From assembly GCA_016840095.1 (NCBI GenBank), contig JAEOSZ010000055.1, positions 1 to 64,000 on the forward strand: a stretch of DNA of 64,000 nt. The letters are read 5' to 3'. Origin of the DNA: Candidatus Heimdallarchaeota archaeon (GTDB taxonomy: Archaea; Asgardarchaeota; Heimdallarchaeia; Heimdallarchaeales; Heimdallarchaeaceae). Shown piece after piece: positions 38,090-38,860 of this stretch (the first letter of the stretch is position 1; each line of letters begins with the position of its first letter). The notes beneath the pieces were generated by a model, which was not told where the DNA came from, did no database searches, and saw only the letters and a program-made list of their open reading frames with translations. A program made the translations under genes and the position numbers.

Positions 38090-38860
38090 ATGAACAAAAA
38101 ACTAGTAATTGGTTTGGTTTTAATCAGCTTAGTTGGTATTACTATGATACCTGTAGGCTATATTGCTTCTGCAGGTGACTGTACTGAAGTTGATTTTGTT
38201 ATATGGCTCGAGACTCCTGAAAAACAAGTTGTAATTGATGAAATGATCACTAAAACTGAAAGCTTAGGATTAACAGTAAATCCTATTTATGTAACTTTTG
38301 AAGAATGGATTGGATATGCTCATGGTTCAAAAGATTATGATATGCTTTATGGCCCCTATATGACTCTCCCTAAAAATCTAAATATTCTTGATCTTGCTCA
38401 ATTAAGCTTGATACTGAACTATTTTGCTTTGACTCATACAGATAAAAAACTAATGACATGTACAGACATTATGTGGAGTATGTTTTGGGAAGCAATAGAA
38501 GATCCTACTTTGATGATGGATGAAGAATTTATAGATAAAATGGTAGATTTGTTCCACATAACTGAAAAACGATATTACATTAAGCAATACTTCTCTGTCT
38601 TTGTTCAATTTGAAACCCCTAGTTCTGATGAATGGGGACCAGTTCCTTCAATGAGAACAGAAGCATTAACCTTCAATTGCTTAAAAGGTCGAGTTTTCAA
38701 AGATGCAGACTTAAGAAAAGAATGGAATTCAATCATAGATAGAACAGTCTTTCTAGATTATCATGCACTTTATACTCCATATCCAGTTTATGAAGTTCAT
38801 CACATATTCCAATATTCTAACTTCCATGATATAACATTACCAAATAACTACTTGTATTGA
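38090..38860 (+). CDS. Secreted mini protein corresponding to the permuted domain III of family 5 SBPs
   Basis: Signal peptide; SLGLTVNP...DYDML precedes LTFN...FKDADLRKEWNSIIDR; AGGTGA SD before ATG 38090. Confidence 0.7.
   Translation: MNKKLVIGLVLISLVGITMIPVGYIASAGDCTEVDFVIWLETPEKQVVIDEMITKTESLGLTVNPIYVTFEEWIGYAHGSKDYDMLYGPYMTLPKNLNILDLAQLSLILNYFALTHTDKKLMTCTDIMWSMFWEAIEDPTLMMDEEFIDKMVDLFHITEKRYYIKQYFSVFVQFETPSSDEWGPVPSMRTEALTFNCLKGRVFKDADLRKEWNSIIDRTVFLDYHALYTPYPVYEVHHIFQYSNFHDITLPNNYLY

Follow-up and report, generated by a model that had tools for sequence, protein, structure and literature searches.

A natural single-lobe protein formed from permuted domain III of a family-5 solute-binding protein in Heimdall-class archaea

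Introduction

Can one lobe of a solute-binding protein (SBP) persist in nature as a protein of its own, and what could it do there? Two lobes are regarded as necessary for binding proteins, and the two-lobed forms are thought to have arisen from a half-size state. Work on single lobes has mostly used engineered constructs that test this duplication-fusion model of origin. The question is raised by a gene at 38090–38860 on the forward strand of a 64,000-nucleotide stretch of DNA from a Candidatus Heimdallarchaeota archaeon, which is referred to as the window. An earlier note, made from the letters of the window, proposed that its 256-residue product is domain III of an SBP, in permuted order and on its own. 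The protein and its family are called mini in the following. In a literature search, in which many subscription papers were beyond reach, no description of natural domain-III-only, permuted or single-lobe family-5 proteins was found.

Architecture of the mini protein

The mini gene (38090–38860, +) is delimited by its open reading frame and its orthologs. It is preceded by the ribosome-binding site GGTGA at 38080–38084 (+), kept in four loci, and its stop codon is followed by a terminator-like oligo-T run at 38874–38890 (+). Residues 1 to 28 (38090–38173, +) form a Sec signal peptide, which is the sole hydrophobic stretch of the protein and ends in Ala-Ser-Ala. Most orthologs show an A-x-A end at this point, residues 1 to 30 are modelled with low pLDDT, and signal peptidase I would presumably cleave here. 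No conserved lipobox and no conserved class III site was found in the signal region, and a lipoprotein or class III signal was rejected. The absence of a C-terminal anchor from the 256-residue secreted protein, seen in the earlier note, proved correct for mini and for its whole family, as neither a C-terminal transmembrane anchor nor a lipobox is present in any of the 41 sequences.

The mature protein starts with the segment that forms the C-terminal part of domain III in canonical proteins. Residues 32 to 176 (38183–38617, +) correspond to approximately residues 360 to 486 of OppA, an assignment based on the VIA structural match to residues 357 to 493 of 5u4o, and include the old ligand-facing loop 40–46 and strand 86–92. 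Within this part, residues 99 to 114 (38384–38431, +) form a hydrophobic helix that is lengthened and confined to the anchorless family, recognised by hydropathy and by a helix at 99–113 in the model. Residues 177 to 186 (38618–38647, +) are a short loop, seen in the model and the alignments, which links the two former hinge strands and takes the place of domains I and II with their roughly 350 residues; it is even shorter in the other mini subfamilies. Residues 187 to 256 (38648–38857, +) are the canonical N-terminal part of domain III according to Pfam and PDB profile matches and the Atlas comparison, bearing the FN strand, a helix with R209, D217 and R218, and a tail with conserved His238, His246 and Asp247. 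The last helix of the full-length proteins is absent from this mini and retained in the basal subfamily, termed d.

The earlier reading had a helix jump directly to the FN motif. This detail was not correct, as the chain passes through strand 168–176, the ten-residue loop and strand 187–196. Similarly, the tryptophan of the EEW motif in the neighbouring SBP is more likely to align with Phe70 of mini than with Trp73.

Assignment to domain III of family-5 binding proteins

Mini consists of domain III of a family-5 (OppA/DppA) SBP alone, circularly permuted. Its sequence homology to SBP_bac_5 is apparent at the level of the family only. The mini sequence alone has no SBP match in Pfam, and a Hen1_N match (E 0.025) was dismissed as chance. 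The by-eye likeness to the divergent neighbour is real, being weak in the pairwise alignment (21% identity over 157 aa, E 0.006) and clear at family level. A profile of 37 mini sequences retrieved almost exclusively family-5 SBP structures from the PDB, with CntA as the best match (E 6e-5); no PDB chain was found with a 12-sequence profile, and the wider one was needed. The matched segments follow the permuted order, with profile positions 26–86 on CntA 343–405 and positions 176–214 on CntA 248–287. PF00496 matches at E values up to 1 were obtained for 7 of 25 members. The relative P0030 scores above the SBP_bac_5 cut-off, its residues 170–256 lying on profile positions 195–279, and in the relative P0016 residues 16–87 match positions 289–360.

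HHalign of the mini family against a chimera of residues 33–175 and 520–620 of the neighbour yielded a colinear alignment with a probability of 85% and an E value of 6e-6. The reversed chimera reached 27%, and the domain I/II middle region of the neighbour 0.2%. The derivation proposed in the earlier note, in which a permuted SBP shed its contiguous insert of domains I and II, is supported; approximately 350 residues are gone.

The structure comparisons agree with this assignment. The predicted mini model has a pLDDT of 85, and the hinge strands, which otherwise lead across to domain I, are joined by ten residues into a hairpin. In VIA, residues 28–175 align with 5u4o 357–493 at Z 7.9 and an rmsd of 2.6 over 127 residues, which is middling when taken alone. 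In the Atlas, residues 26–256 match the model of an archaeal 634-aa family-5 protein with a TM score of 0.67 over 205 residues. For the more conservative relative P0030, the top ten matches all belong to family 5 (Z 7.9–9.1), and the best of them has Z 9.1 and an rmsd of 1.8 over 130 aligned residues. Foldseek against the PDB returned nothing at E 0.001 for either model, which is expected of a permuted half. Sequence, profile comparison and structure thus agree on the expected domain III in permuted order. All 228 mature residues are assigned to domain III and the domain I/II region is unmatched; mini lacks domains I and II, the hinge and the two-lobed build of about 500 residues.

Mini shares the domain III fold, motifs and Sec signal with cluster C proteins (PF00496), such as OppA (1B05, 3TCF), DppA, NikA, CntA (5YH8) and AppA (1XOC). 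In contrast to these, it is permuted and half the size, without domains I and II, a working hinge, the peptide-gripping residues or permease genes nearby. Mini is derived from the cluster C binding proteins and is not a member of them, as it has neither the second lobe and the hinge nor the membrane anchor and the peptide-anchoring residues. The source of the family is evident in the permuted SBP5 proteins with a C-terminal anchor that Heimdall-class archaea possess, of which this genome encodes 14, including the neighbour at 35513–37771, and which show the same order of domain III. Compared with them, mini is without insert, anchor and glycosylation sequons, and its helices are longer and more hydrophobic.

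Distribution, selection and phylogeny

About 40 relatives with the same architecture are found in 12 genomes of two Heimdall-class families. The phylum was covered with 400 genomes; the 12 belong to one class and divide evenly, six and six, between its two families concerned, with absence weighing little since six candidates were scored per genome and most genomes are incomplete. Two further weak genome matches are canonical full-length SBPs. The closed genome G030 carries a copy of mini. The relatives are 240 to 270 aa long at 41–61% identity, and the named ones come from Heimdall-group Asgard archaea. When all 50% clusters were searched, 22 mini matches with a maximum length of 271 aa were obtained, and a genome scan with a narrow mini alignment gave seven loci, all in Asgard archaea. 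Longer, fused forms were searched for and none was found, which is weak evidence, and viral contigs contained no mini.

The earlier note had called for a look at intact orthologs of equal length and at dN/dS, and both speak for a maintained gene. About 40 sequences share the same ends, and no genome match of mini contains an internal stop. In 15 diverged, informative pairs dN/dS lies between 0.05 and 0.42, well under 1, as expected for purifying selection. Two nearly identical pairs with few changes gave 0.65 and 0.92. Between this genome and the relative G004 the value for mini is 0.29, with 0.20–0.36 for three neighbouring genes in the same genome pair. A decaying or neutral fragment of an SBP gene might be suspected from the patchy distribution, the loss of mini from its locus in the related genome G016, the ATT or ATA starts of several copies, and the many SBP pseudogene pieces in these genomes. 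Against such decay stand the shared ends, the intact frames, the dN/dS values, a conserved promoter cassette and a confident fold, by which it is largely refuted and left with a negligible probability. Mini is confirmed as an old family kept by selection.

In the phylogenetic tree the minis form a single clade with support 100, a long stem and four subfamilies that diverge down to 20% identity, with subfamily d at the base. The subfamily of the window is placed within copies of the second family, a position suggestive of a transfer into this genus. In the second family, minis occur in arrays of one to three paralogs with the subfamily compositions a, a+c, b+c, a+b+b and a+b+c. The genome studied here has one mini copy.

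Many copies at the loci L011, L012, L074, L075 and L166 start with ATT or ATA behind a strong GGAGGAG, and a relative, L165, has ATG at this position. Gene callers consequently miss the signal peptide, and the database proteins are 212 to 233 aa long. This pattern suggests non-standard start codons in the second-family lineage.

Membrane-anchored domain-III-only proteins also exist in the same class. They are 320 to 350 aa long and are encoded at L152:5942-7914, L153:163-3253 and L099:115-1170. Like the minis, they consist of permuted domain III alone and occur in tandem copies. Unlike them, these anchored halves possess a C-terminal anchor, are sequon-rich (2.9 times expectation), lack the hydrophobic helix, are close in sequence to full-length proteins and form a separate group elsewhere in the best tree. 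In that tree the minis sit on a long separate stem outside the clade of the neighbour and apart from the anchored halves, with a starred branch between minis and anchored halves. AU tests of a forced union gave p 0.09 for the minis with the clade of the neighbour and p 0.057 for the minis with the anchored halves, and a separate origin of the minis from both is favoured rather than established. A 225-aa domain-III-only ORF in G004 (L154:3313-3990) ends at a TGA inside the domain and groups with a different full-length clade; half proteins may thus have originated a third time here, recently and in a broken form.

As circular permutation had made domains I and II one insert, one deletion is enough to produce a half that is viable. 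Such a deletion to a half protein seems to have occurred repeatedly in these archaea, which are related to eukaryotes.

Genomic neighbourhood and promoter cassette

The gene upstream of mini encodes a full-length permuted SBP5 protein with a stalk and a C-terminal anchor (35513–37771, −), which is linked to mini in one genus in varying arrangements. Further upstream, 32704–35518 (+) encodes a membrane-anchored DUF7343 wHTH regulator and a NosD-like beta-helix protein. In G004 and on the P0002 contig (ENA), the SBP gene lies in reverse orientation and is followed by regulator, beta-helix and mini genes in one direction, so that the wHTH and beta-helix genes are directly upstream of mini and the SBP gene is divergent from the regulator, not from mini. 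The beta-helix gene takes the upstream position in the genome G006 as well. Among the genomes examined, the SBP gene separates beta-helix and mini in this one only. Comparison of 32704–37771 with L010 and L155 shows the SBP-regulator-beta-helix block to be rotated in this assembly relative to G004 and G016, by which the regulator is parted from its divergent SBP promoter.

The idea of a divergent promoter region shared with the full-length copy describes the layout correctly in this genome, to which it is specific; as a conserved feature it was rejected. The neighbour has its own TATA-like element TTTATA at 37807–37812, and a separate cassette lies before mini. This conserved non-coding cassette of 78 bases (37989–38066, +), recognised by identity across loci, is 86–88% identical in G004, G006 and G016 and kept on the P0013 contig, above the roughly 71% of the whole mini gene region. 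It contains a second TATA-like element, TTTATGC at 38030–38036, about 220 bases from that of the neighbour, and is probably the promoter plus operator of mini itself. No Rfam family matched the cassette, and this genome has one copy of it only.

Copies were seen at 37989–38066 of the window, at L155:12889-12972 and at L003:753-807. In several of them AATAGT-TTT-ACTATT forms a perfect inverted repeat; the copy in the window has it in broken form. In G016 the cassette survives without mini, before an ORF that resembles the C-terminal piece of a 660-aa protein, and G006 has a second copy behind mini. Downstream of mini, 38861–39107 holds a forward-strand remnant of 39 codons that is similar to a portion of a 112-aa G004 protein (42%, E 4e-6) and represents a decayed gene between mini and an activase operon. 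The latter, with three genes of DUF2229, dehydratase-like and activase type (39108–42250), is unrelated to mini and absent beside the minis of relatives, which have other neighbours there.

The neighbourhood bears on an action of mini in trans on peptide import, in which it would pair with a full-length permuted SBP, or cap or compete on a half-permease, and so tune uptake among the 15 family-5 SBPs of this genome. Of these 15, 14 are permuted, and one canonical SBP alone lies beside an Opp-type permease pair, on contig C35. The C-lobe touches the DppB scoop helix in DppABCDF (PMC12136057), and in one genus mini lies within 5 kb of one particular SBP gene. However, full-length proteins already carry domain III and occur in 30 of 30 genomes of the family, with mini found in five; SBP, regulator and beta-helix genes are present in G016 without mini; and the arrays of the second family have no SBP or permease gene nearby. 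An in-trans action is therefore improbable. The special relation of mini to the product of 35513–37771 that the earlier note had considered found no support either, given the genome-specific layout, the 21% identity and the existence of the cluster without mini.

Across about 15 mini loci, neither a permease gene nor a consistent partner gene was found, and subfamily d has unrelated neighbours each time. The permeases of this genome lie on other contigs than mini, and orphan SBPs are the rule here. SBP genes were seen on contigs C33, C35, C39, C45, C48, C49, C56, C82, C85, C118, C126 and C165 of this genome (G000). A split partner gene for domains I and II was rejected as well, no stand-alone domain I/II gene being found in this 89%-complete genome.

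Surface properties and ligand face

N-glycosylation sequons are nearly absent from the minis, with none in this protein, on 3 of 353 Asn residues in the family, and seven in the neighbour. Asn-x-Ser/Thr reaches 0.09 of expectation in the minis (2/218; 0/120 in 13 subfamily representatives), a count that treats kin sequences as independent and is thereby inflated, with P 0.004 on distinct alignment columns. The ratio is 0.95 for cytoplasmic and 1.5–1.7 for exported proteins of this genome, and 1.2 for full-length domain III and 2.9 for the anchored halves, which have the same fold. Heavy N-glycosylation is the normal state of peptide-binding proteins in Asgard archaea (bioRxiv 10.1101/2025.02.26.640444). 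Avoidance of sequons would make sense only if mini meets the glycosylation machinery and glycans are harmful to it.

The helix at residues 99–114 has a mean hydropathy of 1.72 in the subfamily of the window, compared with −0.09 in full-length proteins and −0.31 in the anchored halves. In subfamily a every side of it is hydrophobic (mean 1.2–2.5), in subfamily d it is less so. The helix may simply be buried between the adjacent helices and the hairpin. Alternatively, mini could be bound to the membrane by this helix or an uncleaved signal anchor, with a lipid or hydrophobic ligand in a groove of the lengthened helices. The all-round hydrophobicity, which appears together with the loss of the C-terminal anchor, would fit this, as would the usual membrane anchoring of archaeal binding proteins, of which the oligopeptide-binding ones have an SPase I signal and a C-terminal anchor (PMC3387779). 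Contrary to it, the signal region ends in A-x-A in most members, the anchored surface proteins of this genome are sequon-rich and the minis are not, and the helix, whose hydrophobicity is lower in subfamily d at the base, is modelled inside the domain at high confidence. Membrane attachment of this kind is thus considered hardly probable.

The peptide-gripping residues of OppA are Arg413, Trp416 and Asp419 (PMC6305025). In the register given by the sequence alignments, mini positions 87–92 retain just a Gly of this region, and the full-length permuted paralogs likewise lack the three residues. Loop 40–46, which corresponds to the His371 loop of OppA, is the best conserved segment in the subfamily of the window (0.75 vs 0.47 overall), which speaks for a constraint still acting on the old face. 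The conservation of strand 86–92 is average (0.45), and with the gripping residues gone, the old ligand face may also be unused.

A different site could be formed by His156, Glu159, His238, His246 and Asp247, opposite the old cleft, where the fold might have been reused for metal binding or catalysis. Across 25 minis of 20–60% identity, Glu159 is conserved in 100%, His246 in 96%, His238 in 88%, Asp247 in 84% and His156 in 60%. Full-length paralogs have Gln, Tyr or other residues at these positions, and segment 236–251 is twice as conserved in minis as in full-length proteins. On the other hand, His156 is often Asn or Gln in the subfamily of the window, and Glu159 may just pair with Arg218, as in OppA-type proteins. 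A catalytic or metal-binding role is quite improbable.

Proposed function

The reading tentatively preferred here, plausible without being probable, is that of a binding module with an open face, released and unglycosylated, which protein contacts keep at the cell surface and which is not part of a transporter. In this scenario, a permuted family-5 SBP would have lost the contiguous domain I/II insert and the C-terminal anchor and given rise to the old Heimdall-class family; both losses are shown, and the order of events is conjectural. Mini would be exported by Sec and its signal peptide then cut. It would keep the domain III face, unable to close and to seal on an Opp/Dpp permease, which argues against a role as the binding protein of a transporter. 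In DppABCDF, the scoop motif of the permease binds both lobes and seals the cavity (PMC12136057), making a classical transporter role unlikely for a single lobe.

The earlier statement that a single lobe cannot close on its ligand is true in itself, but does not exclude binding. A single lobe engineered from LAO folds and retains weak binding of arginine, at 131 μM compared with 1 nM (bioRxiv 10.1101/2023.03.18.532921), and the likeness of mini to this lobe, which has the same topology, suggests open-face binding with modest affinity. VIA comparison of mini with LAO domain A (6XKS) gave Z 6.6 and an rmsd of 3.4 over 125 aligned residues, and with domain 1 of TmArgBP (6GPC) Z 6.2. In these constructs and in ribose-binding halves, a discontinuous lobe had its insert cut out and closed, as in mini. 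They are man-made and from other SBP clusters, whereas mini is natural and long evolved. Within the preferred reading, mini would probably be kept near the cell by packing on a protein, be it itself, a paralog or an envelope protein, through the glycan-free surfaces and the new hydrophobic helix. It may bind a subfamily-specific ligand or surface, with the paralog arrays varying the specificity.

Packing of mini on itself or a paralog could go further, in that two copies or paralogs pair face to face and trap the ligand between domain III lobes. With such a symmetric flytrap, the family would have gone back to what has been proposed as the ancestral state of binding proteins. For ribose-binding protein, engineered halves are in equilibrium between monomer and dimer (PMC9815098), and glycan avoidance and the hydrophobic helix would suit a tight interface between minis; the tandem paralog arrays also speak for pairing. 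Yet the array combinations vary and this genome has one copy, which speaks against a fixed heterodimer. Single ribose-binding halves lose binding, which only two different halves restore (PMC10601554), and the crystal homodimer of a half is edge to edge rather than a flytrap (PMC9815098). A homodimer prediction for mini (two copies of residues 30–256, 37-row alignment) scored 0.01 and is uninformative either way. The symmetric trap is unlikely. A broader version, in which a natural free lobe back in the half-size state either rebuilds a trap by self-assembly or forms a glycan-free secreted surface assembly, is doubtful.

Archaeal SBP homologues outside transport are known from the haloarchaeal chemotaxis proteins of the BasB/BasT and CosB/CosT types (BasA and CosA in PMC3387779). 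The BasB and CosB types are two-lobed, lipid-anchored and chemotactic, while the membrane regulator near mini is a neighbour in one genus only.

Compared with the proposed origin of binding proteins, the mini family took the reverse course in nature, from two lobes to one, and was kept across two archaeal families and four subfamilies. New for minis are the near-absence of sequons, the gained hydrophobic helix and the conserved promoter cassette of their own. As small, well-modelled natural proteins, they lend themselves to testing solo binding against obligate pairing.

Other small proteins are of note as well. The second-family arrays are flanked by a gene whose cytoplasmic product of 200 aa combines an AT-hook-like GRPRK motif with a basic stretch and a coiled coil and looks bZIP-like by eye; TPR genes come after it (L011:2458-3099, L013, L074-L077, L162:7636-8244 and L166). 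A homologue in this genome (C87:3495-4145) adjoins another small anchorless secreted protein. Contigs C50, C51 and C87 contain other ORFs of 150 to 230 aa with a cleavable-looking signal peptide and without anchor or sequon, which, though too few for a firm statement, possibly represent a class of released unglycosylated proteins.
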